Shown here: positions 219-36,253 of the stretch, in pieces
Position numbering within the stretch: position 1 is the stretch's first letter
Layout: each line of letters starts with the position of its first letter
Source of the DNA: an uncultured Clostridia bacterium
GTDB taxonomy: Bacteria > Bacillota > Clostridia > Lachnospirales > CAMVHY01
Direction: 5' to 3'
DNA: 64,000 nt
Assembly: GCA_947073045.1 (NCBI GenBank)
Contig: CAMTJU010000001.1
Span: forward strand, 45,783-109,782
Notes under the pieces: generated by a model
What the model saw: the letters and a program-made list of their open reading frames with translations, nothing else
Told to the model about the DNA's origin: nothing
Databases searched by the model: none
Made by a program: the position numbers and the translations under genes

Positions 219-228
219 AATAAATATC

Positions 229-262: not shown

Positions 263-272
263 TTTTAGAAGT

Positions 273-309: not shown

Positions 310-315
310 GTAAAT

Positions 316-1803: not shown

Positions 1804-1818
1804 TCAAAAAACACCTCA

Positions 1819-3243: not shown

Positions 3244-3416
3244 TTTTAATCACCCAATTTTTATGGTATCACTTATTTTTTTTAATATCAATGCAAGATT
3301 TCAAAAATTCAATTCGGATTTTTGGCAAGCAAACATTTTTTACTAGACTTAAAAATTTGCTCGAACAATATTTTTTGTGTTATCATGTTCATAAAATTAT
3401 AATGAGAGGTTTATTT

Positions 3417-4689: not shown

Positions 4690-4708
4690 TTAAAGGAGAT
4701 GTGAATTT

Positions 4709-14707: not shown

Positions 14708-15909
14708 AAATAGTAGTAATAGGTGGCGGCGCAGCTGGAATGATAGCAGCAGGAAAAGCTAGCGAAAATAAAAGCAACGAAGTCGTCCTTATCGAAAAAA
14801 ATAATAAGCTTGGGAAAAAATTATTTATAACGGGCAAAGGCAGATGTAATTTAACAAATGCGGTTGGAAAAGATTTTTTGCTGGAAAATACTTTCGGCAA
14901 TAAAAAATTTTTATATCCCGCATTAAATAATTTTGGTATTGAGCAAACAATGGAATTTTTTGAAAAGCTTGGTGTAAAATTGAAAATTGAGCGCGGCGGC
15001 AGAGTCTTTCCGCTTTCCGATAAATCACAAGATATAATAGACGCATTAAAAAAACACATGAACAGTGTAAAAATAAAATTAAATACTGCAGTCGAGAAAA
15101 TTGTTGCGCATGACAATAAAATAAAAGGCGTAAAAACAAGCAACGGATTTATTGAATGCGATAAAGTAATTTTAGCAACTGGCGGCAAATCTTATCCAGT
15201 AACCGGTTCAACTGGTGACGGATACATTTTCGCAAAAAGTTTGGGTCATACAATAATAAAACCACTGCCGTCGTTAGTCCCAATAATTACAAAAGAACAT
15301 TATGATTTACAAGGATTGAGTTCAAAAAATGTGGGAATGGTTTTGAAAAAAGATAACAAAATTTTATATAAAGATTTTGGCGAAATGATTTTCACACATT
15401 TTGGCTTGAGCGGCCCAATAATATTATCAGCTAGCAGATTTTTATTAAATAATTTTTCCAATACGCAAATTATTTTTGATTTAAAGCCCGCACTCTCAAC
15501 TGAACAATTGGATTTAAGATTACAGCGCGATTTCAAAAAGTACTTGAACTGCGATTTTAAAAATGCACTAAAAGATTTATTGCCACAAAAATTAATACCA
15601 GTTATTGTGGAAATTATCGGGATTTACCCAAACAAAAAAGTTAATACAATAAAAAAAGATGAACGCAAAAAATTGGTTCATCTTCTAAAAAATTTTGTGT
15701 TTACACCAATTAAATCATTGGGATTCGAAAATGCAATCATAACATCCGGCGGAGTTTGCACAAAAGAAATTAATCCATCTACAATGGAATCAAAAATTGT
15801 AAATGGATTATATTTTGCAGGCGAAATAATTGATATTGATGCCTTGACAGGCGGTTTTAATTTGCAAATTGCATTTTCCACAGGTTATTTAGCTGGAAAA
15901 AATGCTTGA
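14704..15909 (+). CDS. NAD(P)/FAD-dependent oxidoreductase, HI0933/YhiN (BaiN-like) family
   Basis: 401-aa ORF with the N-terminal dinucleotide fold MKIVVIGGGAAGMIAAG. Ends with TGA at 15907..15909. Its last ~103 codons are the template for the decayed copies at 23091.., 26782.. and, for an earlier segment, 19290.. Confidence 0.85.
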   Translation: MKIVVIGGGAAGMIAAGKASENKSNEVVLIEKNNKLGKKLFITGKGRCNLTNAVGKDFLLENTFGNKKFLYPALNNFGIEQTMEFFEKLGVKLKIERGGRVFPLSDKSQDIIDALKKHMNSVKIKLNTAVEKIVAHDNKIKGVKTSNGFIECDKVILATGGKSYPVTGSTGDGYIFAKSLGHTIIKPLPSLVPIITKEHYDLQGLSSKNVGMVLKKDNKILYKDFGEMIFTHFGLSGPIILSASRFLLNNFSNTQIIFDLKPALSTEQLDLRLQRDFKKYLNCDFKNALKDLLPQKLIPVIVEIIGIYPNKKVNTIKKDERKKLVHLLKNFVFTPIKSLGFENAIITSGGVCTKEINPSTMESKIVNGLYFAGEIIDIDALTGGFNLQIAFSTGYLAGKNA

Positions 15910-15913
15910 TTAT

Positions 15914-18859: not shown

Positions 18860-18917
18860 TGAAATCTCCTCCTTCTTATAACTTTAGTATAAATTCAAGA
18901 GAAAATACTGATACTTA

Positions 18918-18946
18918 ATTATATCATTATTAATTAATAAATTCAA
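18918..18946 (-). promoter_or_regulatory. Sigma-A-type promoter of paralog A
   Basis: Minus strand: TTGAAT, 17 nt, TGATATAAT (extended -10). Same geometry in all four units. About 60-nt leader to the ATG. Confidence 0.5.
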
Positions 18947-19035
18947 ATCAAATAATATTTTTGCCAAAAATTAACTTAAAAAAACTTACCATTGATAATA
19001 TGTAACATAATTCATTCTTTTAGGCAAAAATTTAA

Positions 19036-19090
19036 CACAAAAAATGACCCCATTTTATTAAATTTTTCATTTAATAATTTGAGGTCATTT
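19036..19090 (-). terminator. Long-stem terminator now serving paralog B (inherited from the Cys-protein gene terminator)
   Basis: ~22-bp stem AAATGACCTCAAATTATTAAAT / ATTTAATAAAATGGGGTCATTT followed by TTTTTTGTGTT on the minus strand. The 80 nt here are identical to 30508..30587. Confidence 0.5.
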
Positions 19091-19119
19091 CAATTAATTA
19101 GATTAATTTTTGCTTATTG

Positions 19120-19285
19120 TTAATTGTTGCATCCGCAGTCATTATTAATTGTATTTACACCAGACATCCATACTTAGAATATTTGAGCTAATACCTGCTA
19201 AAAATTCAGGTTTTTGAGGAGGCGCAAACATATTCCAAAAAAATCATATGAGTTAAGCTGTAAAACATTTTAACATTATTTTGCT
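19120..19285 (-). pseudogene. Decayed 3' fragment of the Cys-terminated protein gene (copy 1)
   Basis: Aligns by eye to 30597..~30790 (TTAATTGTTGCATCCGCAGTCATTATTA...), with substitutions and a deletion. The right end is approximate. Confidence 0.65.
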
Positions 19286-19289
19286 ATAC

Positions 19290-19585
19290 ATAAGCCTTTT
19301 GACATTACTTTTAATAATAAAGATCATTATGATTTACAAGGATTGAGTTTAAAAAACGTGAAAATAATTTTGAAAAAATGCAGTAAAATTTTATATAATA
19401 ATTTTAACAAAATGAACCTCACACATTTAGACTTAAGTGACTTAATAATATCTAAACAAGCAGATTTTTATTAAATAATTTTTTCAATTACGAAAATTAC
19501 TTTTGATTTAAAACCCACACATTCTTAACTGAACAACTAGATTTAAGATTACAACATAATTTCAAAAAGTATCTGAGCTAGAAAA
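19290..19585 (+). pseudogene. Decayed internal fragment of the flavoprotein gene (matches about 15280..15560)
   Basis: GATCATTATGATTTACAAGGATTGAG... aligns to 15295.. (EHYDLQGL..) and carries many GC-to-AT changes and stops. The left end is approximate. The right end is overlapped by the paralog B stop. Confidence 0.75.
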
Positions 19586-22500
19586 TGATGATTCATCAAT
19601 ATTTTTGTTCTTTTTTCTTTTCTTTTTTTTGCTTATTTTTTTAGTTTTAACTATTATTCCTTCCCCAGTTTTTCCTGGTACATTTTGTCTTCTTATCTCT
19701 TTTTGCTTCTTTTTTATTATTCTATTTTCTTGATTTCTCTCATTTTTTTCTGGTATATTTTTATTTTGTCTTCTTTTACTTTTAGAAGCCTTTTTTAATG
19801 AAGATGATGGAGATGTTGATTTATTTTTATGTTTATTCTTAATGTCATTCTTTGGAGCATCTTCTAATGAACTATTTGCAGTTTCAGAATTACTATTTTC
19901 ACTCTCAATATCATTAAGTAAATATGATGGGCTATTTTCTTTATTCTTAGAAGAAACATTTTTTACGCTTCTATTAGTATCACTATTTTCAATACTACTA
20001 TTAACATTAGAACCATTATTTGAAAATTTTTTTAACTCTATTTCGTTTTTGCCTTTATTTGATTCTTGATTTTCCTGAATACTATTTTTGGTTTTTTCTT
20101 CTTTTGATATTCCTTTGGAATTTTCTTTGCCGCGTTTTTTTTCTAAATCTTCAAATGTACTTTTTAAATTAACGAATTTAGTGTACAATCTAGTCTCATT
20201 ATTAGATATAAGCAAGTCATGAATAGCTTCTGGAAATTCCCCATCATTATACCTTTGAGAAATCTCATATATATTTTTTATATAAATTTCACTAATATTA
20301 ATATTCACTTCTAATGCTTGAACTACGTTTTGTGTTAAAAGTCCTGTTGGGTCATTTTGAGCAATTTTGAATACAAGTTGAATTAATTCCAGTTTACTAT
20401 TATTGTTTATGGCTTTATTCGCCAATATTTTATCTATACTTGCTTCTAAATTTCCATTTAAATTTTTTAATAAAGAAAAATCACTCACATTTAAAAAACC
20501 ACTATTAACACTCTCAGTTAACTTATATACATTCATTTCTGAGGAAATTTCTGATATCAATACTTTACTAATACAACAAATAACTTCAGGACAACGCATT
20601 CCATATATTGATGAAAGCGTCTTATTTAATAACTTATTAAAATTTTCTTGTTTTTTAGTTAAATCATCAACTTGCATCAAAAGTTGTTTTTTTCTTCGTC
20701 TAGTACGGGGTAAAATTGCACGTCCAATTTTATCTAATGATATTTTCATATTTTCTAATTCTTTTTTATCTTTTTCATATTGCAAATAAAATGCCTCAAT
20801 TAAACCTTTACTATTATTAAACATTCTTGCATCTTCAACTAAATTTTTTCGAAGTTCAGTATTCACATAATTAGATGGATCAGTAAAATATTCTAATCTA
20901 AATGACATTACCTTATTTTTATCCAGTAAAAAATTAATGGTCTGTAATATATCAGCAATACCTTCCGTATTCATTATTTCACTAATTAAATTTGATTTTT
21001 CTTGAGGGTTAAGTGACTTATAATAATCTGAATTAATAACTATACCTAATATATATGCAATTTCTTTTTTTCTCTGTTGTATTATTGAATTAGAAGGTTC
21101 ATTTTTTAGTTTATTATAAACAGCAGTTGATATATCAATATTTTCTGGCAAAAAAATCATACGTTTAAGATATTCTTGACCAGTTGAATCTTCAAGATAA
21201 ACAGATAGACGTTCATTTATGTTGATTTTTTGAGTGCCTGGTGAAGAGTATTCTATATCACCTTCAGGTTTTTGATAAATTACACCTTTTAAACTTTTAA
21301 AACCAAATTTGTCATTTTTATACATTACCTCTATAGAAATATCTGATACTAAGATCATTTGCGCAATTTTTAACAAAGTTTCTATATTTTGTTCCCTACT
21401 AGAACTATTTTTATCTATCAGTTTCATTATTTTTTTTATTTTTTCTAGATTTGGTTTATTAATTGTATCTATAAAATCAAGTAATCTAAGCATTTCATTA
21501 TGTGACAACCTATTTTCCAAGTAATAAATAAATTGTCGTTTCTGTGCATAAATTTCTCCATCGCTCGGAATTTCATTAAAAGAAACATAACTTGGATATT
21601 GGTCTTCAAAAAAGCGATAATATCCTTCCAATTGGCTTTTTAAAATTTGATAATTATTTAAATCATTTTCATTTACTTGACTGCTTAATCCATCCAATCT
21701 ATTTACAACACTCTGAATCTTTTTCACGTAATCATGTATTTTATTAACATTTTTAAACATAGGAATATTGTCACAATTAGGATTTAAAAAACGATCTTTA
21801 CCATTTACACTTATATGCAAATGCGGTAATATAATGATTTTTACCTCATTTAATATTGTACTTAATCTTTTACTTTTAAAATGTATTTTATCTGAATTTA
21901 AGTCATTCCAAAAATCTTGATTTAAAAAACGATGAAATTGATTCTCACCCAAAAATTCAAAACTACTATCAATAATTTTACTTGCTTCAAAATTATAAAC
22001 ACCAAATTTCAAATTAAAAAAAATATCGTTTGCTTGCTTAATGTATTTATTTAATTTTTCTTTGTCCTTTTCGGACATACCTTTAAATAATTCGTTATAT
22101 TTATCCAAAATTGTTTTGAAATAATTAACACAACATTTTTTACCCTCATGTTCAAAAACACAATATCGAGCAACTTCACTTGAAGCAAAATTATCATCTA
22201 CTATGGGTACAATATCTAAATTTTCTTTGTGAATTTCTGATGAAGCCCATTTTGTTAATTCTCCTTTAAAATTAAAATAATTTTCATTATTTCCTGCTTT
22301 CTCGGAAATAAATTTATGCAAACCAATACAATTCAAAAGCATACTTTGCATACTTTTTAAATATTCATAATCCAAGTTCGGATTTATAAGGTGAATCGTA
22401 AATATTTCTGGCAAAAAACTAACACGATTAATACCTTCATTAATAGCTTCTTCATCAGGATAGTCATTACTAAAACCAACTAAATACGCAGCTCTAGCCT

Positions 22501-22615
22501 TAATACTTAAACGTTCTGCTAACTCTTTGTCGCCTTGCGTCACTTTTTTTAAAGTTCTATCAATTTCTTTCCATCTTCCAGTATCTATAAATCCTTGATC
22601 TATAACTTCTTCCAT
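19562..22615 (-). CDS. Large paralog B (1017 aa), same uncharacterised family, long K/S/N-rich tail
   Basis: Start moved to the ATG at 22615 (MEEVIDQGFIDTGRWKEIDRTLKKVTQGDKELAERLS) after AAGGGGG. The TTG at 22702 in the ORF track is the -35 hexamer of the promoter. The last codons and the stop lie in the antisense of the flavoprotein fragment. Confidence 0.75.
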   Translation of the reverse strand: MEEVIDQGFIDTGRWKEIDRTLKKVTQGDKELAERLSIKARAAYLVGFSNDYPDEEAINEGINRVSFLPEIFTIHLINPNLDYEYLKSMQSMLLNCIGLHKFISEKAGNNENYFNFKGELTKWASSEIHKENLDIVPIVDDNFASSEVARYCVFEHEGKKCCVNYFKTILDKYNELFKGMSEKDKEKLNKYIKQANDIFFNLKFGVYNFEASKIIDSSFEFLGENQFHRFLNQDFWNDLNSDKIHFKSKRLSTILNEVKIIILPHLHISVNGKDRFLNPNCDNIPMFKNVNKIHDYVKKIQSVVNRLDGLSSQVNENDLNNYQILKSQLEGYYRFFEDQYPSYVSFNEIPSDGEIYAQKRQFIYYLENRLSHNEMLRLLDFIDTINKPNLEKIKKIMKLIDKNSSSREQNIETLLKIAQMILVSDISIEVMYKNDKFGFKSLKGVIYQKPEGDIEYSSPGTQKININERLSVYLEDSTGQEYLKRMIFLPENIDISTAVYNKLKNEPSNSIIQQRKKEIAYILGIVINSDYYKSLNPQEKSNLISEIMNTEGIADILQTINFLLDKNKVMSFRLEYFTDPSNYVNTELRKNLVEDARMFNNSKGLIEAFYLQYEKDKKELENMKISLDKIGRAILPRTRRRKKQLLMQVDDLTKKQENFNKLLNKTLSSIYGMRCPEVICCISKVLISEISSEMNVYKLTESVNSGFLNVSDFSLLKNLNGNLEASIDKILANKAINNNSKLELIQLVFKIAQNDPTGLLTQNVVQALEVNINISEIYIKNIYEISQRYNDGEFPEAIHDLLISNNETRLYTKFVNLKSTFEDLEKKRGKENSKGISKEEKTKNSIQENQESNKGKNEIELKKFSNNGSNVNSSIENSDTNRSVKNVSSKNKENSPSYLLNDIESENSNSETANSSLEDAPKNDIKNKHKNKSTSPSSSLKKASKSKRRQNKNIPEKNERNQENRIIKKKQKEIRRQNVPGKTGEGIIVKTKKISKKKKRKKNKNIDESSFSSSDTF

Positions 22616-22673
22616 TGAAATCGCCCCCTTCTTATAACTTCGGTATAAATTTAAGAGAAAGTATTGATACTTA

Positions 22674-22702
22674 ATTATATCATTATTAATTGACAAATTC
22701 AA
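22674..22702 (-). promoter_or_regulatory. Sigma-A-type promoter of paralog B
   Basis: TTGAAT (22702..22697), 17 nt, TGATATAAT (-10 at 22679..22674). Confidence 0.5.
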
Positions 22703-22902
22703 ATAAAATAATCTTTTGCCAAAAAAGTAACTTAAAAAAATTTTTGTTATCGAAATGCAATAAAAAAATTTGTTATTGATAATATATTACATAATCATTC
22801 ATTTATGCACAAATTTTAACACAAAAAATAAACCACATTTTATTAAATTTTTAATTTAACAATTTGAGGTAATTTCAATTAATAACTTATTTTGGCTTAT
22901 TG

Positions 22903-23090
22903 TTAATTGTTATATCCACAATCATTATTATTTTTGTTTACACCAGCTACATATGTACTTGGAATATTTAAGCTAATACCAGAAAAAATTTTAGGTTTCT
23001 GAAGCGCCACAAATACATACTTTGGGAAATCTAAGCTTTTAAAGAAATTACAACATAGATTAAGCAGCAAAACATTTTTACATTCTTTTG
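22903..23090 (-). pseudogene. Decayed 3' fragment of the Cys-terminated protein gene (copy 2)
   Basis: TTAATTGTTATATCCACAATCATTATTATT... aligns to 30597..30781 and ends at ..CATTCTTTTG. Confidence 0.65.
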
Positions 23091-23351
23091 ATTATTGTTA
23101 AAATCAGATGTATTTACCAAAACAAAAAAGTTAATGCAATAAAAAAGATGAACACAAAAAATTGGTCCATCATCTAAAAAATAATGCAATCATAATATTC
23201 AGCAAAGTTTGCACAAAAAAAATTAATCCATCTACAATGGAATCAAAAATTGTAAATGGATTATATATTTTACAGACGAAATAATTAATATCGATACCTT
23301 GACAAGCGGTTTTAATTTGTAAATTGCACTTTTTACAGATTATTAAAATAC
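23091..23351 (+). pseudogene. Decayed 3' fragment of the flavoprotein gene (copy matching 15601..15909, with an internal deletion)
   Basis: ATTATTGTTAAAATCAGATGTATTTACCAAAACAAAAAAGTTAATGC... aligns to GTTATTGTGGAAATTATCGGGATTTACCCAAACAAAAAAGTTAATAC... Confidence 0.7.
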
Positions 23352-26345
23352 TTAAATCGTTTTTTTGCGAAGACGTCGTTTTTTATTTTGGTCATTTTCT
23401 ATATTTTCGTTTTTTCTTCTTTTGGGTAATATTTTTTTACTTTGTTTTTTCCCTGAATTTTCATCAGTGAGTCTTTTTAATGGTTTTTCTCTATTCTGTA
23501 AATTTTCAACCTTCTTTTGCAATTTACGGTATTTAGTGTCAAAATCGTCACTTAAAAGCAAACAAACAATGGATCTCGGATAATTTCCTCTGGCATATTT
23601 TTGAGAAATATCATGTATAACTTTTATATAAGCTATACGATCCGCATAACCCATCTCTTTTAATCCTAGACTTACATTTTTCGTTAAAACTCCTGTTGGA
23701 TCATTTTTAGCAATTTCAGATACAAATTGATTTAACTTCGACTTACCACCACTTTCTTCTTCCAATTCAAAATTTATATCAGCATCGCTTTCTAATAAAT
23801 GCGATATTGCATCTTTAATAGATTTTAATTCAGCATCTTTATCAATATTTTCAAAATCATTTTTTTGGTCTTTCTCTGAATTTCTTTTGATTCTTTTATC
23901 TTGTTTTTCGTCATCGCGCTTTTCTAATGGTTTTGAAGCTTCAAGTTTATTGTGTAAATTATTTTCTATATAAGTATTTATCTTATAAAGCGAATTACTA
24001 ATATCATCAATTGAAACTTTTCTATGATTATATTTTTCAGAAATATTATATATTTTTTCCATGTAATATATACAATCATTATAATTATTAGCCGTCAATT
24101 CTAATACTAGATTTACATTTTCTGTTAAAAGTCCTACTTGATTATCATTTTTAGCAATTTTGAATACAAATTGAATCAACTCCAACTCCCTATCCCTGCT
24201 TATACCTAATTTCAATATTTTATTTATACTTTTGTATAAGTTTTCTGCAGGAAGCGATTTTATAGCTGCAATGCCATTATTAATAATATCAGATAGCATA
24301 TACAAATTTTCTGAAAAAACATTTGAATTTGTCATTTTAAATATACAATCAATAACTCTCTCACAAACTCTTTTATCTATTAAACTATTAAGCATCTTAT
24401 TTAATAATACATCAATTTTTCTTTGTTTTTTAGTTGTACCTTCAACTATACTTGACTTTTTTGCACTTTCTAAATATTGCATATAAAATGCATCAATTAA
24501 CTCTCTAAAAGAATAAATTAACTTAGAAATTCTCAGCACTTCTTCTTGATTTTCCTTTGATATATAGTTACTCGAATTAGTTAATTTACTTAATATATTT
24601 AACATTAATTCATCTTTATTTCTTTCTAGTAAAAAATCAATAGCATGCGTTATAAAATAAATATTGCTATCTTTAAATTGAGCGTCTTCAGGCAAAATAT
24701 AGTTAAACAAATCTGATTTTTCTAAATCTTCAAGTGATTTATAAGAAGTTGAACTAAGCATTATACCTAATACATGTGCAATTTTTTTATTTTCGGCTTC
24801 ATTTTTTTCTGAAGAATATCGTCGATGTGTTTTTTTTGCTTTTCGATAATGAGTTTCTTTTGCTTTTCTTTTATTATAAACAGCAGTTGATATATCAATA
24901 TTTTCTGGCAAAAAAATTATACGTTTAAGATATTCTTGATCAGTTGACTCTTCAAGATAAAAAGCTAAGCGTTCATTTATGTTGATTTTTTGACCATCTG
25001 ATAAATTCATCATCTCTATATCTTGTTCAGGTGTTTGATAAATTAAACCATTTAAACTCTTATAACCAAACTTCCCCTTTTGATACAACATCTCTACTGA
25101 AGGATCTGACACCAAGATCATTAGTATAATTTTTCCTAAATTTTCTTTTATTTGGTTTTCATCATATATATCTGGATTTATCAGATTCATTATTTTTTTT
25201 AGATTTGGTTTATCAATTGTGTATATTAAATCAGACAATCTAGCAGCTTTAGCAGTTACTTTGGTTAGGATTGAATTATAATTTTCATCACTTTCATCTG
25301 GCACCTCATAACTAAGGTAATCAATAAATTGGTCTTTCAGTTTATCAACATCTGCTTTTTTTGGCATTTGATTAAAAGAAACATAACTTAAATATTGGTT
25401 TGCAAAAAAGAAATAATACTTTTGCAATTCACTTTTTAAATTTCGATATTCAGGCAAATCGCTTTTATAGAAATTTTTTATTTCATTCAATTTATTTATA
25501 CTTTCTTGGATCATTTTCATATAATCATGTATTTCATCAGTATTTTTAAACACAGGAATATTTTCATGACTAGGATTCAAAAAACGATATCTACCATTTA
25601 CTTCTATACGCAAATGTGGCAATATATTGCTTTTTACTTCATTTAATATTGTATTTAATCTTTTACTTTTAAAACGTATTTCACCTGAATTTAATTTATT
25701 CCAAAAATCTTTATCCAAATTGCTATAATATTGAACTTGTCCAAAATAAATACTTTTTGCTTGATCAATAAATTCATTTAATTCTTTCTTATCTTTTGTA
25801 GAAATACTTGTAAGTAAATCTTTATATCTATCAAATATTTCTTCTAAACTATTAATACAATACTTTTTACCTTCATGTTCAAAATCATAAAATTGATTAA
25901 ATTCAACAGGTACAACATCTTCAAGTTCATTAAATCCAATTGTATTCCCCAAATTTTTATCAAAAACAGGTACAGCATTTGAAAATTCGCTATATTCAAA
26001 TTCCTTAATTTCAGAAAAATGTGAAACATCTGAATTTCTTATAAACGAATTAAGCAATTCATTCTCTAAATCGTCTTTCAAACTACTGTACTCATTTTTT
26101 CCTTTTTCTATTTTTTTTGATATAAATTTATGTAAAGCAACAAGATGCAAAAGCATATCTTGCATACTTTTCTTGTATTCAAAATTCAACTCCGGACTTG
26201 CCAATTGTTTTACAAATATATCATTACCAAAATTAGGATTAAGATAATTCAACGAATTGTCTCTCAACATCATACTTAAATATTCTGCTAATTCTTTGTT
26301 ACCTTGTGTCACTTTCCATCTTACAGTATCTATAACTCCTTCCAT
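23352..26345 (-). CDS. Large paralog C (997 aa), same uncharacterised family
   Basis: N-terminus MEGVIDTVRWKVTQGNKELAEYLS, with a short deletion relative to the others. Carries the conserved blocks EHEGKKYCIN, ILPHLRIEVNGRYRFLNP, QKININERLAFYLEESTDQEYLKRIIFLPENIDIS and two ..AKNDxxGxLT.. modules. Confidence 0.8.
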   Translation of the reverse strand: MEGVIDTVRWKVTQGNKELAEYLSMMLRDNSLNYLNPNFGNDIFVKQLASPELNFEYKKSMQDMLLHLVALHKFISKKIEKGKNEYSSLKDDLENELLNSFIRNSDVSHFSEIKEFEYSEFSNAVPVFDKNLGNTIGFNELEDVVPVEFNQFYDFEHEGKKYCINSLEEIFDRYKDLLTSISTKDKKELNEFIDQAKSIYFGQVQYYSNLDKDFWNKLNSGEIRFKSKRLNTILNEVKSNILPHLRIEVNGRYRFLNPSHENIPVFKNTDEIHDYMKMIQESINKLNEIKNFYKSDLPEYRNLKSELQKYYFFFANQYLSYVSFNQMPKKADVDKLKDQFIDYLSYEVPDESDENYNSILTKVTAKAARLSDLIYTIDKPNLKKIMNLINPDIYDENQIKENLGKIILMILVSDPSVEMLYQKGKFGYKSLNGLIYQTPEQDIEMMNLSDGQKININERLAFYLEESTDQEYLKRIIFLPENIDISTAVYNKRKAKETHYRKAKKTHRRYSSEKNEAENKKIAHVLGIMLSSTSYKSLEDLEKSDLFNYILPEDAQFKDSNIYFITHAIDFLLERNKDELMLNILSKLTNSSNYISKENQEEVLRISKLIYSFRELIDAFYMQYLESAKKSSIVEGTTKKQRKIDVLLNKMLNSLIDKRVCERVIDCIFKMTNSNVFSENLYMLSDIINNGIAAIKSLPAENLYKSINKILKLGISRDRELELIQFVFKIAKNDNQVGLLTENVNLVLELTANNYNDCIYYMEKIYNISEKYNHRKVSIDDISNSLYKINTYIENNLHNKLEASKPLEKRDDEKQDKRIKRNSEKDQKNDFENIDKDAELKSIKDAISHLLESDADINFELEEESGGKSKLNQFVSEIAKNDPTGVLTKNVSLGLKEMGYADRIAYIKVIHDISQKYARGNYPRSIVCLLLSDDFDTKYRKLQKKVENLQNREKPLKRLTDENSGKKQSKKILPKRRKNENIENDQNKKRRLRKKTI

Positions 26346-26412
26346 TGAAATCTCCCCCTTTTTATAACTTCGGTATATAAATTATAAATTCAGGAATAAG
26401 TATTGATACTTA

Positions 26413-26441
26413 ATTATATCATTATTAATTGACAAATTCAA
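26413..26441 (-). promoter_or_regulatory. Sigma-A-type promoter of paralog C
   Basis: TTGAAT, 17 nt, TGATATAAT on the minus strand. Confidence 0.5.
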
Positions 26442-26615
26442 ATTAGACAATCTTTTTGCCAAAAAATAATTTAAAAAATTTTGCTATTGATAATATGTGA
26501 CATAATTCATTCTTTTGCAGATAAATTTTAACACAAAAAATAGCCCCATTTTATTAAATTTTTCATTTAACAATTTGAGATCATTTCAATTAATTAGTTT
26601 ATTTTTGGCTTATTG

Positions 26616-26781
26616 TTAATTGTTGCATCCGCAGTCATTATTATTTGTGTTTACACCAGCAACATGTGTACTTGGGATATTTGAGCTAATACCTGTTAAA
26701 AATTCAGGTTTTTGAGGCGACGCAAATATATTTCAAAAAAATTACATGCGTTAAACATTGAAATATCTTCACATTCTTTTG
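26616..26781 (-). pseudogene. Decayed 3' fragment of the Cys-terminated protein gene (copy 3)
   Basis: TTAATTGTTGCATCCGCAGTCATTATTATTTGTGTTTACACCAGCAAC... aligns to 30597..30781 with a deletion. Same junction as copy 2. Confidence 0.7.
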
Positions 26782-27087
26782 AGCATTATTAAAATTATCG
26801 GCATTAGCTAAACAAAAAAGTTAATGCAATAAAAAAGATGAACGCAAAAAATTGATTCATCTTCTAAAAAATTTTGTTTTTACACCAATTAAATCATTGG
26901 ATTTCGAGAATACAATCATAACATCTGTAAGAGTTTACACAAAAAAAATTAATCCATCTACAATGAAATCAAAAATTGTAAATGGATTATATTTTGCAGA
27001 CAAAATAATTAATATTGATGAGCTTACAGACAGTTTGAATTTATAAATTACATTTTCTACAGATTATTAGATGGAAAAAATGCTTAA
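26782..27087 (+). pseudogene. Decayed 3' fragment of the flavoprotein gene (copy matching 15601..15913)
   Basis: The track ORF 26852..27046 translates to MIHLLKNFVFTPIKSLDFENTIITSVRVYTKKINPSTMKSKIVNGLYFADKIINIDELTDSLNL. This matches 48 of 64 residues of the intact C-terminus, and almost all differences are GC-to-AT changes. Confidence 0.8.
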
Positions 27088-30000
27088 TTATTTATTTTTG
27101 GACTTTTTTGTTTTATTTGACTCATTTTTTATTTTTCTTTGTCCTTTTTCGACTTTTTTTAATGGTCTGTTCACTCCATTTTTTTGTTCTTGGGCAACTT
27201 TTTTCATTGGAGATAATGAAGATGATGAAGAGAAATCTCCATATGTAACGTTAAGACTATCATTTTCATCGTATCCTTTAGCTTGTTCATAAATATCTGA
27301 ATTACTTACTCCTACACCTAATATATCATTTAATATATCATTTTTACAAAGAATTCTTTTTTCACCATCTGCTTTTTTTGCAGGTTTAGAATTATCTTTA
27401 TAACTTCCTGATAAACTATCAACAGTATTACTTGATGAATAATTTTCCTCTAAAAAAACTTCTGACTCTATTTTTTCTTGTTGTTCACTTAAATTATTTT
27501 CTTTTTCTGAATTTTCAAGAGTATCTATTTCTTCATGATAACTGCTATAATCTGCTTGATCCTCAACGTCACTATTTTTACTATCATCATTCTCTAGAGA
27601 AATATTACTAATATCTTCTGAATTATCTCCAACTTGAGAATCACCATTTTTATTATTAACGCTATCATTTGAATAACTTGATGACCCTGAATAATAACTT
27701 GATGAATAATAATTGGAACCTTTATCTAAATTATTTTCTACATTTCCAAAATTATTATTATTATTGTTATCCTCTAAAGAAGATTCTGACCTTACTCTTT
27801 CTTGGTTATTATGCGAATTTTCGCCAGCGACCCTTGGTATAGGTTTTAAAACTTTAATTTGATTGTGTAAACCACCGTATTTAGCGTATAATTTAGTATT
27901 TCTATCTTTATCACTATCGTCAGCACTATATTCAACTTCACTTTCAATCAAGTCACTAATATCCGATGGAAACTCTCCATTATTATACAATTGAGAAATC
28001 TTATATATATCATCCATATAAACTTTACGAACGTAATTATCACCAGCCGGCAATTTTAATACTTCATTTACTCTATTCATTAAATGGCCTGTTGGATCAT
28101 TTTGAGCAATTTTAAATACAAGTTGAATTAACTCCCACTCCCTATCCTTACTTATATTTAAATCCAATACATCATTTAAGTTTGAGGCCAAAATATTAGA
28201 AATTTGAATTAATTTTTCCTTAGACAAATCTTTTCTATCTATTAAACTATTAAGCGTCTGATTAAATAATTTATCAAAATTTTCTTGTTTTTTAGTCAAA
28301 TCATCAACTTGTTGCTTCAAAAGTTGTTCTTTTCGTTTTTTTCTTCGTCTTGTACTTGGCAAAATCGCAGTTTGTCCAATTTTGTCTAATGATTCTTTTG
28401 CGTTTTTTAATTCATTTTCGTATTTTTTATGTTGCTCATAAAATACATCAAGCAAATTATGACTATCATTAATTATATCAGAAATTCTCCACAATTCTTG
28501 CCGTTCTTTAGTTGAAATATAATTCTCTGGATTAATTAAGCGATTGAATATATCTAGTTTTACACCGTTATATCTATCTGTCAGATAATTAATTGCATGC
28601 GATATACTAACAGCAATGTTATTTTCAGTATTAATTATTTCATTAATAAAATCTTCTTTTGTTTCTTCAACTTCAAGTGAATTCTTACGTAATCTATAAC
28701 GAGTTAGCCGACTAACTTTTTCTGTTTCTTTAGGTTGTTCTTTAAGTAAATTTTTAAGTAATTCATAATAATCTTGTTCAACTTCATTTAATGCACCATT
28801 ATTACTAGACCGCTTTTTTTCTAATTTTTTTATTTCTTCTTCTATTTCTTTTTCTTCTTTTTCTATTGCTTCTTTTATTTTTTCAAGCTCATTTTGTTTT
28901 GTTTTTTTATCTTTAAGTGAATTAAAATGAGCTGAACTAAGCACTATATTGAGTACAGGTGAAATATTTGGATAATATAAATAAATATCAGATATATTAA
29001 TATTATCTCGCAAATAAATCATACGTTTAAGATACTCTTGACCAGTTGAATCTTCAAGATAACCAGATAGGCGTTCATTTATGTTGATTTTTTGATTGCC
29101 TAATGAATCCACCATCTCTATATCTTTAGATCCAGGTTTTTGATAGATTAAACCATTTGAACCATTTAAACTTATATACCCTAACTTTTTCTCTTGATAC
29201 ATCATCTCTACTGAAATATCTGATACTAAAATCATTTGCATAATTTTTCGCAAATTTTCTTGTCTTTGTTTACCATCAGGATACTTTTGGGGATCTGTTA
29301 GAACCAACATTTTTTTTAGATTTGGTTCATCAATTGTATATATTAAATCAAGTATTCTAAACTTTTCATCTTTTGACAAACTTTTGTAATAGTCACTCTG
29401 CACAAATTTATTCATCAGTGTATTAACATCTTTTCTAGTTGGCATTTGATTAAAAGAAACATAACTTAAATATTGATTCTCAAAAAATAAATAATACTTT
29501 TGTAATTCACTTTTTAAATTTTGATAATTAACTAAATCTCCTTCATTTAATTCTTGATTGCCCAATTCATTAAATCTATTTAAAACACGTTGGAGAATTT
29601 GCATCAAAGCTAATATATCATTAATATTTTTACACATAGGAATATTGTTATAATTAGGATTTAAAAAACGATCTTCGCCATTTACTTTTATATGCAAATG
29701 CGGCAATATTCCTTTCTTTACCATCGATAATACTTGATCTAAACTTTTATTTTCAAAAGATATTTCATCTGAATTTAATTTATTCCAAAATTCTGTATCC
29801 AATTTGTCACAATATTGAATGCTTTCAAAATTTCGAAAACCTCTTTTAATAACTTCTCTTGCTTCAACTGAAGGTCCATTTTTTAATAAGTTCAACACAT
29901 TGTTTAATTCTTCTTTATCGCTTGGATCCATAATAATACCTTCAAATTCATATTTATGAAGAACTTCTTTGATATTATTAATACAATATTTTTTACCTTT

Positions 30001-30327
30001 ATGTTCAAAAACATAAAATTGATTAAATTCATTTGGAACAAAATCGTTATCTACTGGTACAATATCACTTATGTGAACGTTCATTATATAACCTAATTTA
30101 TGCAAAGCAGCATAATGCAAAAATATATCTTGCATACTTTTTTTATATTCATAATCCACTTCTGGACTTAGTGTAAGTAGATTATTAGAAAATTTCATAA
30201 TGTTACTCAAATAATTATATATAACCGTCGGACTTAAACGTTCTGCTAACTCTTTGTCACCTTGTGTCATTTTTTCTAACATTCTATTAACTTCTTTCCA
30301 TCTTCCATTATCTATAACTCCTTCCAT
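27088..30327 (-). CDS. Large paralog D (1079 aa), same uncharacterised family, long S/N/D/E-rich tail
   Basis: N-terminus MEGVIDNGRWKEVNRMLEKMTQGDKELAERLS. Conserved blocks present, an extra E/K-rich coiled-coil-like insert (KEKEIEEEIKKLEKK), and a C-terminal ~250-aa low-complexity acidic/Ser-Asn region ending in a basic tail. Confidence 0.8.
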   Translation of the reverse strand: MEGVIDNGRWKEVNRMLEKMTQGDKELAERLSPTVIYNYLSNIMKFSNNLLTLSPEVDYEYKKSMQDIFLHYAALHKLGYIMNVHISDIVPVDNDFVPNEFNQFYVFEHKGKKYCINNIKEVLHKYEFEGIIMDPSDKEELNNVLNLLKNGPSVEAREVIKRGFRNFESIQYCDKLDTEFWNKLNSDEISFENKSLDQVLSMVKKGILPHLHIKVNGEDRFLNPNYNNIPMCKNINDILALMQILQRVLNRFNELGNQELNEGDLVNYQNLKSELQKYYLFFENQYLSYVSFNQMPTRKDVNTLMNKFVQSDYYKSLSKDEKFRILDLIYTIDEPNLKKMLVLTDPQKYPDGKQRQENLRKIMQMILVSDISVEMMYQEKKLGYISLNGSNGLIYQKPGSKDIEMVDSLGNQKININERLSGYLEDSTGQEYLKRMIYLRDNINISDIYLYYPNISPVLNIVLSSAHFNSLKDKKTKQNELEKIKEAIEKEEKEIEEEIKKLEKKRSSNNGALNEVEQDYYELLKNLLKEQPKETEKVSRLTRYRLRKNSLEVEETKEDFINEIINTENNIAVSISHAINYLTDRYNGVKLDIFNRLINPENYISTKERQELWRISDIINDSHNLLDVFYEQHKKYENELKNAKESLDKIGQTAILPSTRRRKKRKEQLLKQQVDDLTKKQENFDKLFNQTLNSLIDRKDLSKEKLIQISNILASNLNDVLDLNISKDREWELIQLVFKIAQNDPTGHLMNRVNEVLKLPAGDNYVRKVYMDDIYKISQLYNNGEFPSDISDLIESEVEYSADDSDKDRNTKLYAKYGGLHNQIKVLKPIPRVAGENSHNNQERVRSESSLEDNNNNNNFGNVENNLDKGSNYYSSSYYSGSSSYSNDSVNNKNGDSQVGDNSEDISNISLENDDSKNSDVEDQADYSSYHEEIDTLENSEKENNLSEQQEKIESEVFLEENYSSSNTVDSLSGSYKDNSKPAKKADGEKRILCKNDILNDILGVGVSNSDIYEQAKGYDENDSLNVTYGDFSSSSSLSPMKKVAQEQKNGVNRPLKKVEKGQRKIKNESNKTKKSKNK

Positions 30328-30393
30328 TGAAATCTCCCCCTTTTTATAACTTCGCTACAAATTCAGAAATAAGTAAATAAGTATTGATACTTA

Positions 30394-30422
30394 ATTATAT
30401 CATTATTAATTGACAAATTCAA
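30394..30422 (-). promoter_or_regulatory. Sigma-A-type promoter of paralog D
   Basis: TTGAAT (30422..30417), 17 nt, TGATATAAT (-10 at 30399..30394). Confidence 0.5.
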
Positions 30423-30510
30423 ATTAAACAATCTTTTTGCTAAAAAGTAACTAAAAAAATTTTGCTATTGATAATATGTGACATAATTCATTTATTTGTG
30501 CACAAATTTT

Positions 30511-30567
30511 AACACAAAAAATGACCCCATTTTATTAAATTTTTCATTTAATAATTTGAGGTCATTT
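30511..30567 (-). terminator. Terminator of the Cys-terminated protein gene
   Basis: Long imperfect hairpin (~22-bp stem) followed by a T-run on the minus strand, about 30 nt after the stop at 30597. Confidence 0.6.
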
Positions 30568-30596
30568 CAATTAATTAGATTAATTTTGGCTTATTG

Positions 30597-31493
30597 TTAA
30601 TTGTTGCATCCGCAATCATTATTATTTGTGTTTACGCCAGCAACATGTGTACTTGGGATATTTGAACTAATACCGGCTAAAAATTCAGGTTTTTGAGGCG
30701 GCGCAAATACATCCATTGGGAAATCTAAGCTTTCAAAGAAATCACATGGGTTAAGTGGTGAAATATCTTCGCATTCTTTTGGTATACAGAATCCTCTTGA
30801 TTCTACATTAAGATTTACAAGTCTGTAAAGTTTTATGATAGTAAATAAACCAATTGTTACATTTACACGGTTTGGTTCCGGAGGAAGGTCCTCAACTGAT
30901 GAACATCTTCTTTGTAATCTTAATTCAGCTGATAGTGCAACAGCTTTTGCTTCTACAAAAATAAATGGTTCTGCACGAAGAGTAGTTGAATCGTTAGTGC
31001 TGCATTTAAATAAATCGGTAGCAATAACTAAATCTGAGCCAATTGATCCAAACAATGTAACTTTTTTATTAAAAATACTGTTTGCACATACAGGCGAACT
31101 TATTGGAGTTCCGTCAGCTTCTCTGAAAGTCAATCTGTATTGGAAAACATATTTCAAATCTACATCCCAAAAACCATTTTTAAATGGGTTAGGACATTTA
31201 TCAACAATAATGACTTTTTTTACAAATAAATTATCTATAGTAACAGCAGCTGCGTTAGAAGGCGGGTCAATTATCTCTCCTTCTTGTATGCATTCATCTC
31301 CGATTACAGTTTTTTTAGCAGCTCTTGCCGGCCCAATTTCATTTGCCGTTAAACAATCTTGTTGTCTGCATGAATCATAAACTTTAAATGCAATAATGCA
31401 TTCTTCTTTCACTCTTCTGTTATCAACATTTTCACCAGCAACATTTTCATTACATCCACAATCTGTATTGTTGTTAAATTCAAACGCACTCAT
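30597..31493 (-). CDS. Hypothetical 298-aa protein with mirrored DCGCN termini
   Basis: RBS AAAGGAGGA 8 nt before the ATG. N-terminus MSAFEFNNNTDCGCNEN.., C-terminus ..NTNNNDCGCNN. 12 Cys in total, a beta-rich-looking body, no signal peptide or TM helix. I cannot place it in a named family. Confidence 0.75.
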   Translation of the reverse strand: MSAFEFNNNTDCGCNENVAGENVDNRRVKEECIIAFKVYDSCRQQDCLTANEIGPARAAKKTVIGDECIQEGEIIDPPSNAAAVTIDNLFVKKVIIVDKCPNPFKNGFWDVDLKYVFQYRLTFREADGTPISSPVCANSIFNKKVTLFGSIGSDLVIATDLFKCSTNDSTTLRAEPFIFVEAKAVALSAELRLQRRCSSVEDLPPEPNRVNVTIGLFTIIKLYRLVNLNVESRGFCIPKECEDISPLNPCDFFESLDFPMDVFAPPQKPEFLAGISSNIPSTHVAGVNTNNNDCGCNN

Positions 31494-31611
31494 TATTAAA
31501 TCCTCCTTTATAATTTAAAACTATATCTCCCCCTTAATTTTGATATATGTACAAATAAATTTTTTGTGACTTAATTTGTTCTTTAAAAAAGTAACTTCAT
31601 AAAAAGAAACC

Positions 31612-33726: not shown

Positions 33727-34854
33727 GTGAGTGCTTTTTTAAATAGTTTTACAAACAGTTACGAATTAAAAATTTTGGATGGTGAACATCCATTCAACAA
33801 AGCTGTGATTGTAAAAAATAACAAAAATATTTATCCGACTGTAGCTTCATTGGAATTAACGTATAAATGTAATTTGAGATGTCGTCATTGTTATGGAGAA
33901 TACGGTGACGTAAATAAAATAGAGATGGATATAAATAATTTAAAAAAGTTATTGGTTGAGCTAAAAGAATTAGGGATAAGAATAATAGAATTTACAGGCG
34001 GAGATGTTAGCATCTATCCGCACTTTAAAGAAGCTTTGTTGTATGCAATAGACTTAGATTTTGATTTTATATGCATTTTAACGAATGGAATAGCACTAGA
34101 TGATGATATTATAGAAATTATTATTAATAATAAGAACAAAGTTGTTATGCAAATAGATTTACATAGCTTAGATGATAATTATTTAGAGTGGTTTACACAA
34201 GTTCCTAATACTATAGATCGTATAAAAAATATCATAACAAAATTTACGCAAAATGATGTATTAATCCGTATTGCAACTGTTGTAACACCTAAAAATGTTG
34301 ATGAAATAGAGACTATTGCAGATTGGGTGCATAATATTGGTATTAAAACTTATGCTCTTTCTCCAGTTATAAATTTAGGTAGAGCAACTTTTTTAAATGA
34401 CAATTTGTTATTCAATAATAAAGAGCAACTAGCAAAGTTTGAAAAAGTGGTTAATAATATTATGTCTAAATACAGTAATTTTCTAACAGTACGTGAAGAT
34501 GCTGTAAATGAAAGACCAAATTGTGGTAGTTTAACATCTAATGTTACTATAATGCCTGATGGAAATATAAAACACTGTACTATGGATAATTCAAAATATG
34601 CTAATACTAGCATAGGAAATGTATTTGATAAACCTATTAAACAAATATATGATGAAAATACAGACTATATTGAAGCTGTTTTTGCTTTAGAACCTCCAAA
34701 ATATGATTCTATAGAATGTCGCGAATGTGATAAAAAATATTTTTGTGGCAATTGCATTTTGAGAGGATTTATAAGTAGAAAAGACAAAGGAGAAGAATGC
34801 AAATGGTATACAAACAAAGTCCCACAAATAATAAAAGAAAAATTATCGATTTAA
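33727..34854 (+). CDS. Radical SAM/SPASM peptide maturase (sactisynthase-like), lacking its intact N-terminal RRE
   Basis: CNLRCRHC (CxxxCxxC) rSAM cluster. C-terminal SPASM-type Cys motifs (CGSLTSNVTIMPDGNIKHC; CRECDKKYFCGNCILRG). The sequence from 33667 to 33726 (DLVKELSVKYAESYESINNK) completes the RRE when read through. Confidence 0.85.
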   Translation: MSAFLNSFTNSYELKILDGEHPFNKAVIVKNNKNIYPTVASLELTYKCNLRCRHCYGEYGDVNKIEMDINNLKKLLVELKELGIRIIEFTGGDVSIYPHFKEALLYAIDLDFDFICILTNGIALDDDIIEIIINNKNKVVMQIDLHSLDDNYLEWFTQVPNTIDRIKNIITKFTQNDVLIRIATVVTPKNVDEIETIADWVHNIGIKTYALSPVINLGRATFLNDNLLFNNKEQLAKFEKVVNNIMSKYSNFLTVREDAVNERPNCGSLTSNVTIMPDGNIKHCTMDNSKYANTSIGNVFDKPIKQIYDENTDYIEAVFALEPPKYDSIECRECDKKYFCGNCILRGFISRKDKGEECKWYTNKVPQIIKEKLSI

Positions 34855-35519
34855 AAAATATATGTAAAAACTATAATCAAAAAAGTATACTAGACAATGT
34901 TAATTTATCTATACCCGTAAATTCCATATATGCTTTAATAGGACCTAATGGAGCTGGTAAAACTACATTATTAAGAATTATTTTAGGACTTATAGAAAAA
35001 AGCTCAGGTAAAGTAGAAAATCATTTTAGTAATAATGATATATCGGCATTGTTGGAGAATGATTACTTATTTCAGAATAAAACAGGTCAAAATAATATTA
35101 ATGATTTTGCGAAATATTTTTCGATTGATATCAGTAAAAATAAGAAACTAATTGATGAGTATATAACATGTTTAGGTTTGCAAAATGATTTAAATAAAAT
35201 GGTTCAATATTATTCAAAAGGTATGAAAAGAAAGTTATCTATATTAATAACTTTAATACGAAATACAAGCTTTCTAGTTTTAGATGAACCAACTTCAGGA
35301 GTTGATCCTCAATCTAGAATAGAAATACGTAAATTATTTAGCTTGTTAAAGAATCAAAATAAAACTATATTAGTAACATCACATGACTTAGCAGAAATAA
35401 CAAAAGTAAGCGATTATATATCTGTAATAAAATCTGGACAAATTATTGATACTTTTAAAAATGATTCTGATATTGATTTGGAAAAGAAGTTTTTTGAAGT
35501 AATTAATGGAGGAATCTGA
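34797..35519 (+). CDS. ABC transporter ATP-binding protein (RiPP export/immunity)
   Basis: Walker A GPNGAGKTT, signature YSKGMKRKLS, Walker B FLVLDEPTSGVD. The start is ambiguous (ATG 34797 or 34803) and overlaps the rSAM 3' end. Confidence 0.8.
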   Translation: MQMVYKQSPTNNKRKIIDLKNICKNYNQKSILDNVNLSIPVNSIYALIGPNGAGKTTLLRIILGLIEKSSGKVENHFSNNDISALLENDYLFQNKTGQNNINDFAKYFSIDISKNKKLIDEYITCLGLQNDLNKMVQYYSKGMKRKLSILITLIRNTSFLVLDEPTSGVDPQSRIEIRKLFSLLKNQNKTILVTSHDLAEITKVSDYISVIKSGQIIDTFKNDSDIDLEKKFFEVINGGI

Positions 35520-35521
35520 AT

Positions 35522-36253
35522 ATGAATATTAAAAATATAATTTCAGTGGCAGTGTTTGACCAAATTAAAGATAAGGGATTTTTGTATTCTTTCTTTGTAA
35601 ATTTGATATTGAATATTTCTATCTTTTTATTTATTTCGTTGAGTAATGATTATGAAGGAATGCTTTCAAGCATTATGATCTTATTTTTTGTAATCATTAA
35701 TATATCAATTTATCAACTTATCACAAATGTTGTTTTATATAATATATCCATTAACGAAAAAATTTCATCGCGTTTGGAATTTTATTTAGCTAATAAAATT
35801 CCTTTAAATGATATTTTAAATGCCTATTCAATTTCAACATTTATTTTAAGCAGCTTAAGCACCATATCATTTACATTGGTAATTCTATTAATGACATTAA
35901 TTTTTAAATTGCAAAATTTTGTGCAAATCTTTTGGAACTTAGATTTTGTTGCTATTTTTCTAGTACTATTAATATTTTTTTATTTAGTAGCTCAATTACT
36001 AAACATATTTGTATTTATATCAAAAAAAATATCAACTATAAGAATGCTTATTGCGCATTCTTCATTATTTGTTTTATTGTTAGGTGTATTTGGTTCAAAA
36101 TACATGATAAAATCAGCAATGTATTTTAATATTTCTTTTAATCTAGCTATAACGATAACTTTACTTGGATTGTCATTAGTCATTTTGTTTTTTGTTATTG
36201 CGCTAAAATGTAATTGTACAAAAGAAAAAATAGTATTATCAACTAAGGAATAA
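35522..36253 (+). CDS. ABC-2-type transporter permease
   Basis: 243-aa ORF, very hydrophobic with about 6 TM helices, starting 3 nt after the ATPase stop. Confidence 0.7.
   Translation: MNIKNIISVAVFDQIKDKGFLYSFFVNLILNISIFLFISLSNDYEGMLSSIMILFFVIINISIYQLITNVVLYNISINEKISSRLEFYLANKIPLNDILNAYSISTFILSSLSTISFTLVILLMTLIFKLQNFVQIFWNLDFVAIFLVLLIFFYLVAQLLNIFVFISKKISTIRMLIAHSSLFVLLLGVFGSKYMIKSAMYFNISFNLAITITLLGLSLVILFFVIALKCNCTKEKIVLSTKE

Follow-up and report, generated by a model that had tools for sequence, protein, structure and literature searches.

The 64,000 nucleotide (nt) stretch of DNA from an uncultured Clostridia bacterium analyzed here (GenBank assembly GCA_947073045.1, contig CAMTJU010000001.1; referred to below as the window) contains a locus with the order rarA, an intact flavoprotein gene, four tandem paralogs on the minus strand (A-B-C-D) and a CsxA-like gene (csxA). 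A dead fragment of the flavoprotein gene (positions 26792–27091) adjoins paralog D. The locus raises the question of why remnants of dead flanking genes look better conserved than the living paralogs that were duplicated along with them. The original prediction had taken this contrast as a sign of fast or diversifying protein evolution, with large parts of the paralogs evolving faster than neutral DNA or being reshuffled, and only block motifs under constraint. The present analysis indicates that near-neutral or diversifying amino-acid replacement, combined with recombination, explains the pattern better than protein selection faster than neutral. The stub identity, the origin of the array, and open paralogs that recombine and change at about the neutral rate, taken together, form an explanation that is considered probable on balance.

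The fragment next to paralog D is a non-functional 3′ stub of the flavoprotein gene that was copied by tandem duplication. In a blastn comparison within the window, it aligned to positions 15611–15913 with 87.8–87.9% identity (E ~1e-102 to 1e-104), including a 238 nt ungapped stretch at 88% identity to the flavoprotein gene. Translated in frame 26783, 62 of its 83 codons (75%) match flavoprotein residues 317–399, the same proportion as the 48 of 64 residues counted originally, and all replacements listed at that time (G to D, V, R or S; E to K three times; A to T; C to Y) are present. The stub belongs by homology to the C-terminal FAD-binding segment of the PF03486/PF22780 flavoprotein gene, of which just the last ~100 codons remain. 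It carries two in-frame stops (Q to stop and L to stop) and 1-nt indels, lacks the 5′ part, and is not a functional flavoprotein, as a complete open reading frame (ORF) with the N-terminal Rossmann motif is missing.

For the paralogs, pairwise codon alignments were used; a multi-unit MAFFT alignment misaligned the divergent parts. Nucleotide-identity and codon-position figures were taken from ungapped blocks of at least 25 amino acids (aa) and at least 35% identity. The paralogs align in short blocks with many indels, as had been noted from the sequence, with 42–54% amino-acid identity and 25–38 gap runs per pair. Nucleotide identity in the alignable blocks is 69–76%, below that of the stub, and codon positions 1, 2 and 3 differ about equally. 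The ratio of nonsynonymous to synonymous substitution rates (dN/dS) between paralogs is 0.8–1.16 by the NG86 method, 0.43–0.79 by maximum likelihood, and 1.0–1.35 when calibrated with the stub mutation spectrum (0.7–1.2 if only codons with a single difference are counted). By the same methods, five flanking genes compared with their counterparts in strain L003 give 0.02–0.3 (0.24–0.29 for the flavoprotein gene and 0.04 for the CsxA-like gene), in agreement with the predicted fast evolution of the paralog proteins. The cleanest pair, paralog C and the C-like gene of contig L002 (termed F), with 92% nucleotide identity, has a dN/dS of 0.87–1.09 and a transition/transversion ratio (ts/tv) near the neutral expectation; separate dN/dS values for transitions and transversions were too noisy to inform. 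The region-by-region comparison that had been proposed revealed no region significantly different from the gene average, since no 60-codon window departs from the mean (by permutation, the maximum has p = 0.49 and the minimum p = 0.85). Amino-acid replacement in the paralogs thus proceeds at about the neutral rate over the whole alignable length. The suggestion that only the block motifs are constrained was not borne out, as dN/dS is flat along the gene and the conserved blocks are conserved at synonymous sites too.

These rates are found in four real genes that are held open by selection, each with its own predicted sigma-A-like promoter and ribosome-binding site (RBS). Applying the stub-derived mutation matrix to each paralog ORF at mean stub age gives 25–32 expected nonsense hits per ORF per neutral lineage; because none is seen (probability of still being open 1e-11 to 1e-14), the paralogs must be under selection. 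The ORFs remain open over 981–1079 codons at 25% GC, while the 83-codon stub already carries two stops. All gap runs between paralogs are in frame. A promoter-like TTGAAT-17-TATAAT, preceded by TG, and an AGGAGG-like RBS are kept before all four copies.

The array arose from a duplicated unit of 3.7–4 kb, consisting of the flavoprotein 3′ end, the orphan gene together with its promoter, and the hairpin-bearing csxA 3′ end. Each of the three junctions between paralogs (J1–J3) contains a copy of the csxA 3′ end with hairpin followed by a paralog promoter and RBS, as well as a flavoprotein gene fragment, giving six stubs in total (three flavoprotein fragments and three csxA 3′ ends). Differences in the stubs were polarized with the intact gene and its ortholog in strain L003. 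The features of the locus are as follows.

14704–15909, plus strand: intact HI0933-like FAD flavoprotein gene, parent of the flavoprotein stubs (Pfam PF03486, E = 3e-85; PF22780, E = 5e-35)
15914–18859, minus strand: paralog A, an orphan ORF of 981 aa, predicted all-alpha
18860–19119, minus strand: copy of the csxA terminator-like hairpin, promoter (TTGAAT-17-TATAAT with TG, 18946–18918) and RBS, upstream of paralog A
19120–19302, minus strand: J1, dead csxA 3′ end, aligning to 30597–30800 (26/176 polarized differences)
19319–19579, plus strand: J1, dead piece from the interior of the flavoprotein gene, corresponding to 15292–15550 (blastn ~81% identity; 49/261 polarized differences, 18.8%)
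19562–22615, minus strand: paralog B, ORF of 1017 aa counted from ATG; a TTG at 22702 overlaps the promoter
22616–22902, minus strand: terminator-like hairpin, promoter (22702–22674) and RBS, upstream of paralog B, with a 30-nt insert also found in strain L003
22903–23090, minus strand: J2, dead csxA 3′ end
23092–23351, plus strand: J2, dead flavoprotein 3′ fragment that has its breakpoint and eight derived substitutions in common with J3
23352–26345, minus strand: paralog C, 997 aa, with an internal duplication of the C-terminal 'NDPTG' module
26346–26615, minus strand: terminator-like hairpin, promoter (26441–26413) and RBS, upstream of paralog C
26616–26781, minus strand: J3, dead csxA 3′ end (13/158 polarized differences)
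26782–26791: J3, junction filler
26792–27091, plus strand: J3, dead flavoprotein 3′ fragment (the stub under study), just downstream of the paralog D stop
27088–30327, minus strand: paralog D, ORF of 1079 aa with a long S/N-rich C-terminal tail
30328–30596, minus strand: original csxA terminator-like hairpin (30515–30568), with the promoter (30422–30394) and RBS of paralog D
30597–31493, minus strand: intact CsxA-like cysteine-rich gene, 298 aa, parent of the csxA stubs

The common breakpoint and the eight common derived substitutions identify J2 and J3 as copies of one older junction. J1 is distinct, with an internal flavoprotein piece, another breakpoint, and a csxA stub that extends 19 nt further; therefore, at least two non-homologous duplications and one homologous copying of a junction are needed. 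The stop codon of paralog B lies inside the antisense J1 flavoprotein stub (19562–19579), in which the final ~360 nt of the parent gene are missing. The tail of paralog B (about 19580–20000) is novel, with ~150 aa rich in K, N and S; an origin of this K-rich tail in the missing 360 nt was rejected, as the local alignment score was no better than those of shuffled sequences.

The stubs decay by the background mutation of the genome, which is mostly of the deamination type (C>T), is strongly biased from GC to AT, and is about twice as frequent for minus-strand C. This matches the AT-biased decay that had been read from the J3 flavoprotein stub, where 25 of the 30 changes at 289 sites are GC>AT and one is AT>GC. 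For the six stubs pooled (176 changes at 1301 sites), the rates are 0.29 per GC site for GC>AT and 0.034 per AT site for AT>GC, with a ts/tv of 2.9 and an implied equilibrium GC content of ~8%, compared to an actual 25–31%. An AT bias of mutation is general in bacteria (Hershberg & Petrov 2010, PMC2936535; Hildebrand et al. 2010, PMC2936529). The stubs resemble that general case in a per-site loss of G/C that is ~9 times as fast as its gain and in an equilibrium far below the actual GC content; they differ in being six small duplicated stubs at one locus, with 176 changes and a clear strand asymmetry.

On the plus strand, G>A changes affect 74 of 225 sites and C>T changes 30 of 198 (2.2-fold, p = 2.5e-5, six stubs pooled), and the excess has the same direction in six of six stubs, independent of the strand of the parent gene. 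G>A read on the plus strand is a minus-strand C>T; the minus strand is G-rich, gene-rich, presumably leading, and non-template for the paralogs. Cytosine deamination on the leading or non-template strand yields GC skew, and the asymmetry appears to fit the local GC skew and such deamination asymmetry ideas. An excess of G over C on the leading strand has been described (PMC3174206). The likeness to replication or transcription asymmetry lies in C>T being 2.2 times commoner on the G-rich minus strand that carries most window genes; the two effects are confounded here, however, as the paralogs are coded on the same strand that is presumed to be leading.

The greater conservation of the dead stubs holds as a raw contrast (88% versus 69–76% nucleotide identity), but that contrast does not compare like with like, since a stub and its intact parent represent one freely decaying lineage and a pair of paralogs represents two. 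Additionally, the stubs began GC-richer, and so more mutable, than the ORFs. In a comparison of two lineages with two, the dead J2 and J3 stubs are 15.7% diverged (95% confidence interval 11–21%) and the flanking C/D and B/C ORF segments 24–37%. The ORF DNA is thus 1.5–2.5-fold more diverged than the co-duplicated dead DNA, an excess that persists after corrections for lineage number and starting GC. The prediction of paralogs faster than neutral is upheld by these figures as far as the DNA is concerned, but the excess is equal at synonymous sites and protein selection is not demonstrated by it. In neutral codon simulations, the observed proportion of synonymous differences (pS) of 0.30 needs ~2.2 times the mean stub age, and 4-fold degenerate sites need 1.5–1.8 times. 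As the excess is shared by synonymous sites, protein-level selection alone cannot be the cause.

Along the gene, pS tracks the proportion of nonsynonymous differences (pN), with 0.12–0.16 in the most conserved block and 0.35–0.46 in variable windows. Protein selection can neither raise pS nor lower it inside motifs, and different genealogies along the unit are thereby indicated. The most conserved protein block, QKININERL / EDSTGQEY (24863–25005, 21103–21245, 17308–17450 and 28965–29107), is conserved at synonymous sites as well. Its QKININ part keeps mutable C-ending codons, which the local mutation bias should erase, in nearly all members; the block may be a recombination 'homology block' or an element acting at the DNA or RNA level. 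The conserved blocks in general look more like the result of homogenization or DNA-level conservation than of plain amino-acid constraint. The stubs are themselves imperfect clocks, with unequal ages, indels that are incongruent between junctions, and genealogies that disagree with those of the ORFs.

Segments have been exchanged between copies and between strains, resulting in a mosaic genealogy, and the reshuffling of the paralogs envisaged in the original prediction is supported by heterogeneous phylogenetic signal, long concordant tracts, between-strain mosaics, indels that junctions share incongruently, and junction ages at odds with the ORF topology. Informative sites among A–D support AB|CD (97), AD|BC (44) and AC|BD (28), in proportions that vary along the gene (chi-square p = 1e-4). 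Concordant tracts of the kind sought by GENECONV are longer than in permutations for B/C (p = 0.0005), C/D (p = 0.0025) and A/B (p = 0.0095).

In L003 to L006 (positions 186–5011), a single family member (E, 808 aa) lies between the intact csxA and the flavoprotein gene, without stubs. The L003 flanks are ~97% identical to the window (synonymous divergence dS 0.06–0.10), and E is ~70% identical to any of A–D; the identity switches inside the last ~30 codons of the ORF on one side and just after the csxA stop on the other. A BLAST value of '95%' for L003 against the 3′ end of paralog A is an average dominated by the flanking genes. At 4-fold sites, E differs from A at 13 of 68 positions, compared to 44 of 822 in the flanks (p = 1.6e-4). 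E is best read as another lineage of the family, left by array collapse or exchange, rather than as a hyper-evolved ortholog; its promoter region has states in common with the A/B type. The second comparison is L002 (1–3413), which aligns to window positions 23237–26439 and contains the C-like gene. Identity is 100% over the last 150 nt and 115 nt of the J2 stub, 90–99% in mid-gene and 67–89% in the 5′ third, where none of A–D matches. Either mosaicism between strains or a chimeric contig assembled from short reads accounts for this allele.

A history that would account for these observations begins with tandem duplication of the 3.7–4 kb unit through at least two non-homologous junction types (J1, and J2 = J3), after which unequal crossing-over would have copied the J2/J3 junction. 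The paralogs have also acquired numerous in-frame insertions and deletions, expanded internal repeats and novel tails. The dead stubs look better conserved because a stub is compared, over one free lineage, with a constrained parent, and because replacement sites in the paralogs change at the neutral rate. Gene conversion, unequal crossing-over, and copy loss or exchange would have given the ORF segments and the junctions different genealogies. A dN/dS near 1 would most likely combine a minority of constrained positions with many positions at which change is tolerated or favored.

The likeliest rival ascribes a faster-than-neutral rate in most of the paralog protein to pervasive positive (diversifying) selection, with the stubs as a fair clock. 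The greater divergence of the ORF segments than of the dead J2/J3 pair speaks for it, as do the calibrated dN/dS of 1.0–1.35 and replacement-dominated measures that are 1.6–2.4-fold too high against a 4-fold-site clock. At equal pN, the fraction of invariant columns is 0.257, compared to 0.175 under a single-rate model, and the copies are retained, promoter-bearing and strain-variable. However, the rise in divergence is equally large at synonymous and at replacement sites, single-difference codons bring the ratio down to 0.7–1.2, the C/F pair is close to neutral in both dN/dS and ts/tv, and the genealogies of stubs and ORFs conflict. From the six sequences, the global dN/dS is ~1 (0.7–1.35), with two pairwise intervals that just exclude 1 and no outlier window. 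Pervasive selection of this strength is judged unlikely; some diversifying selection on a retained, promoter-bearing, strain-variable family is possible, even likely.

Several observations weigh against the combination of near-neutral replacement and recombination preferred here. Two calibrated dN/dS intervals lie above 1 (A/D, 1.04–1.49; A/E, 1.14–1.62). In the neutral codon simulations, codon positions 1 and 2 and transversions need 2.5–4 times the stub age, and if 4-fold sites are the true clock, dN/dS is well above 1. Where segments are divergent, misalignment raises the number of A<->T mismatches, and pN as well as pS could be distorted by it; the comparison comprises just six family members from three lineages. 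'Tolerated' and 'favored' changes are not separable without the function of the paralogs. The L002 mosaic is known from one 3.4-kb short-read contig, which is possibly chimeric. The J1 flavoprotein stub also looks older than that of J3 (changes at A/T sites 18/185 versus 2/199, p = 1e-4). Overall, J1 appears 1.4–1.8 times older than J2/J3, although no two ORFs of the array are closer to each other than A and B, which flank it; no single duplication history was found that fits junction order, junction ages and ORF topology together.

A second rival holds that the stubs are not neutral, being homogenized by gene conversion (with their parents and with each other) or constrained as regulatory DNA that supplies the paralogs with terminators and promoters. 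The promoter, hairpin and RBS part of the junctions is indeed conserved (7.7–14.6% divergence, motifs intact). Additionally, the csxA stubs of A_J1 and C_J3 (19120–19302 and 26616–26781) have a 19-nt deletion in common, the B_J2 promoter region (22616–22902) has the 30-nt insert in common with L003 (about 1230–1260), both kinds of J3 stub are less diverged than their J2 sisters, and the pseudo-dN/dS of the stubs against their parents is 0.57 instead of 1. The last value matches the prediction (~0.6) for one neutral and one constrained lineage, however, and the coding-derived stubs have lost 28–40% of their G/C sites and contain stops and frameshifts. No terminator-like hairpin was found on the paralog strand of the flavoprotein stubs, and the single plus-strand hairpin of the parent flavoprotein gene (15840–15853) is destroyed in J3. 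An Rfam search of 14500–31600 found no family. Non-neutral stubs are considered improbable.

A mutator targeted to the ORFs (transcription-associated mutagenesis or a diversity-generating system), which would raise mutation at all codon positions, would explain why synonymous and replacement divergence are alike raised and why identity between strains changes abruptly where the ORFs end. Neither a template/variable-repeat pair nor silent cassettes were found in the window, the differences extend over 3 kb without being specific to adenine, and the ORF ts/tv is 0.7–1.0, compared to 2.9–12 for the local mutation spectrum. Recombination accounts for the mosaics of junctions and ORFs, and a mutator is highly improbable. 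A further idea, that the paralogs are decaying or non-coding DNA in their own right and their high divergence is trivial, would fit a dN/dS of ~1, position-1 differences at least as frequent as those at positions 2 and 3 (which are about equal), a GC content below that of the flanks and the lack of known domains, but is effectively refuted by four long ORFs that stay open against the expected nonsense hits, by indels that are all in frame, by the conserved promoters and RBSs, and by the two stops already present in a stub of 83 codons.

The paralog family is nearly species-restricted. Of 5.8 billion proteins, seven match, and all seven belong to this species group; a search of 1.84 billion cluster representatives likewise gives seven and adds a distant relative, P0008 (576 aa, 27% identity over ~260 aligned C-terminal residues) and a weak 117-aa match, P0009 (E = 1.3e-10). 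The part of P0008 held in common with the family is limited to the module 'IAKNDPTG...IY.ISQKY', which occurs twice in paralog C as its internal duplication (23700–23782 and 24144–24226). Searches of the paralogs against Pfam, NCBIfam, PADLOC, PHROGs and a PDB sequence profile gave no meaningful match. Among defense and phage families, there was no PADLOC match, a ZorA subfamily scored 19.6 bits against a cut-off of 250, and one PHROG was hit at E = 3e-4 by one member. The AlphaFold2 model from the six-sequence alignment is mostly helical and of low confidence (pLDDT 53, pTM 0.30), and is unusable; a Foldseek search with the paralog model against the PDB returned nothing below E = 0.38. A profile search of genome contigs found no relative of the paralogs, and in a search of genome contigs (GTDB representatives), the best flavoprotein match had an identity of only 61%.

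The paralogs resemble orphan genes with high dN/dS in the near absence of homologs, a dN/dS of ~1 and low GC, and are unlike them in being long (~1000 codons), in four copies and demonstrably kept open. Proximity to csxA hints at a possible spore-surface link; the promoter-like site of the paralogs is of the vegetative type. PF27077 (CsxA) was precomputed for the 99%-identical L003 ortholog, and a Pfam hmmscan of the 298-aa protein of the window gave no match, so that the Pfam versions behind the two results appear not to be the same. CsxA is a protein of the exosporium basal layer of Clostridium sporogenes and C. botulinum, located within a strain-variable gene cluster that also holds collagen-like exosporium proteins (PMC7333573). 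The present locus is like that cluster, an example of the tandemly expanded, quickly diversifying and recombining gene families and variable cassette loci of bacteria, in its variable copy number (four versus one) beside a csxA homolog, conserved flanks, hypervariable interior, mosaic alleles and internal repeat expansion. It is unlike it in that the paralogs are not collagen-like, have no signal peptide-like feature or known domain, and have a vegetative-type promoter-like site.

Unlike variable cassette loci, the array has no silent-cassette or expression-site architecture. Antigenic variation from silent cassettes of the pilE/pilS or vls type was rejected, as four of four copies are full length with promoter-like site and RBS, and no paralog fragments were found elsewhere in the window. 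A diversity-generating retroelement target was likewise rejected, since the differences span whole ORFs and all base pairs and no extra repeat pair is present; no reverse transcriptase was found among the scanned neighbor genes, which are housekeeping genes, the scan having covered these neighbors rather than the whole window.

More speculatively, the array might be a species-restricted contingency locus, in which the ORFs are kept open, most positions are pushed to change, segments are shuffled at DNA-conserved 'homology blocks', copies are gained and lost between strains, and diversification serves spore- or cell-surface or phage interaction beside csxA. This proposal is tentative, and rather doubtful as a whole; if true, the real dN/dS would be about 1.5–2 against the 4-fold-site clock.

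Two housekeeping genes have left stubs only hundreds of bases away from co-duplicated living paralogs; these stubs provide an internal neutral standard for both rate and spectrum, and read out mutation bias, including strand asymmetry, without culture work. By this standard, an uncultured low-GC Clostridia-like bacterium carries a long orphan family that is kept open, recombines, and undergoes replacement at about the neutral rate. Such families are candidate genes for interaction with host, phage or environment, and are invisible to homology-based annotation.

The window DNA is 24–35% GC with a negative plus-strand GC skew throughout, and its genes are the housekeeping genes of a Clostridia-like bacterium. 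The four-copy array is genuine and not an assembly artifact, because the same array is found in three further assemblies (L087–L089), in identical form, and nearly so in a fourth (L001), in which the sole difference is two repeat-number indels in paralog A. The tandem repeats of this paralog have units of 141 nt (16754–17138) and 21 nt (17848–17938). L001, otherwise identical over 23 kb, has two extra 141-nt units near 16911 and one fewer 21-nt 'NENDLTN' unit at 17855–17875, making its paralog A 1068 aa long, compared to 981 aa in the window. The length difference reflects either true repeat-number variation or short-read repeat collapse.

The convergent stops of the flavoprotein gene and paralog A (15909–15914) are 4 nt apart and leave no intergenic space for a terminator; any terminator must therefore sit within the coding sequence of the opposite gene. 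Beyond the array, positions 33727–36253 (plus strand) encode a radical-SAM/SPASM enzyme, an ABC ATPase and a protein of 243 aa that has no Pfam match; two small called ORFs of 45 and 61 aa lie immediately upstream (L087 2680–3068), and this neighborhood may be a small modified-peptide (RiPP-like) cluster.

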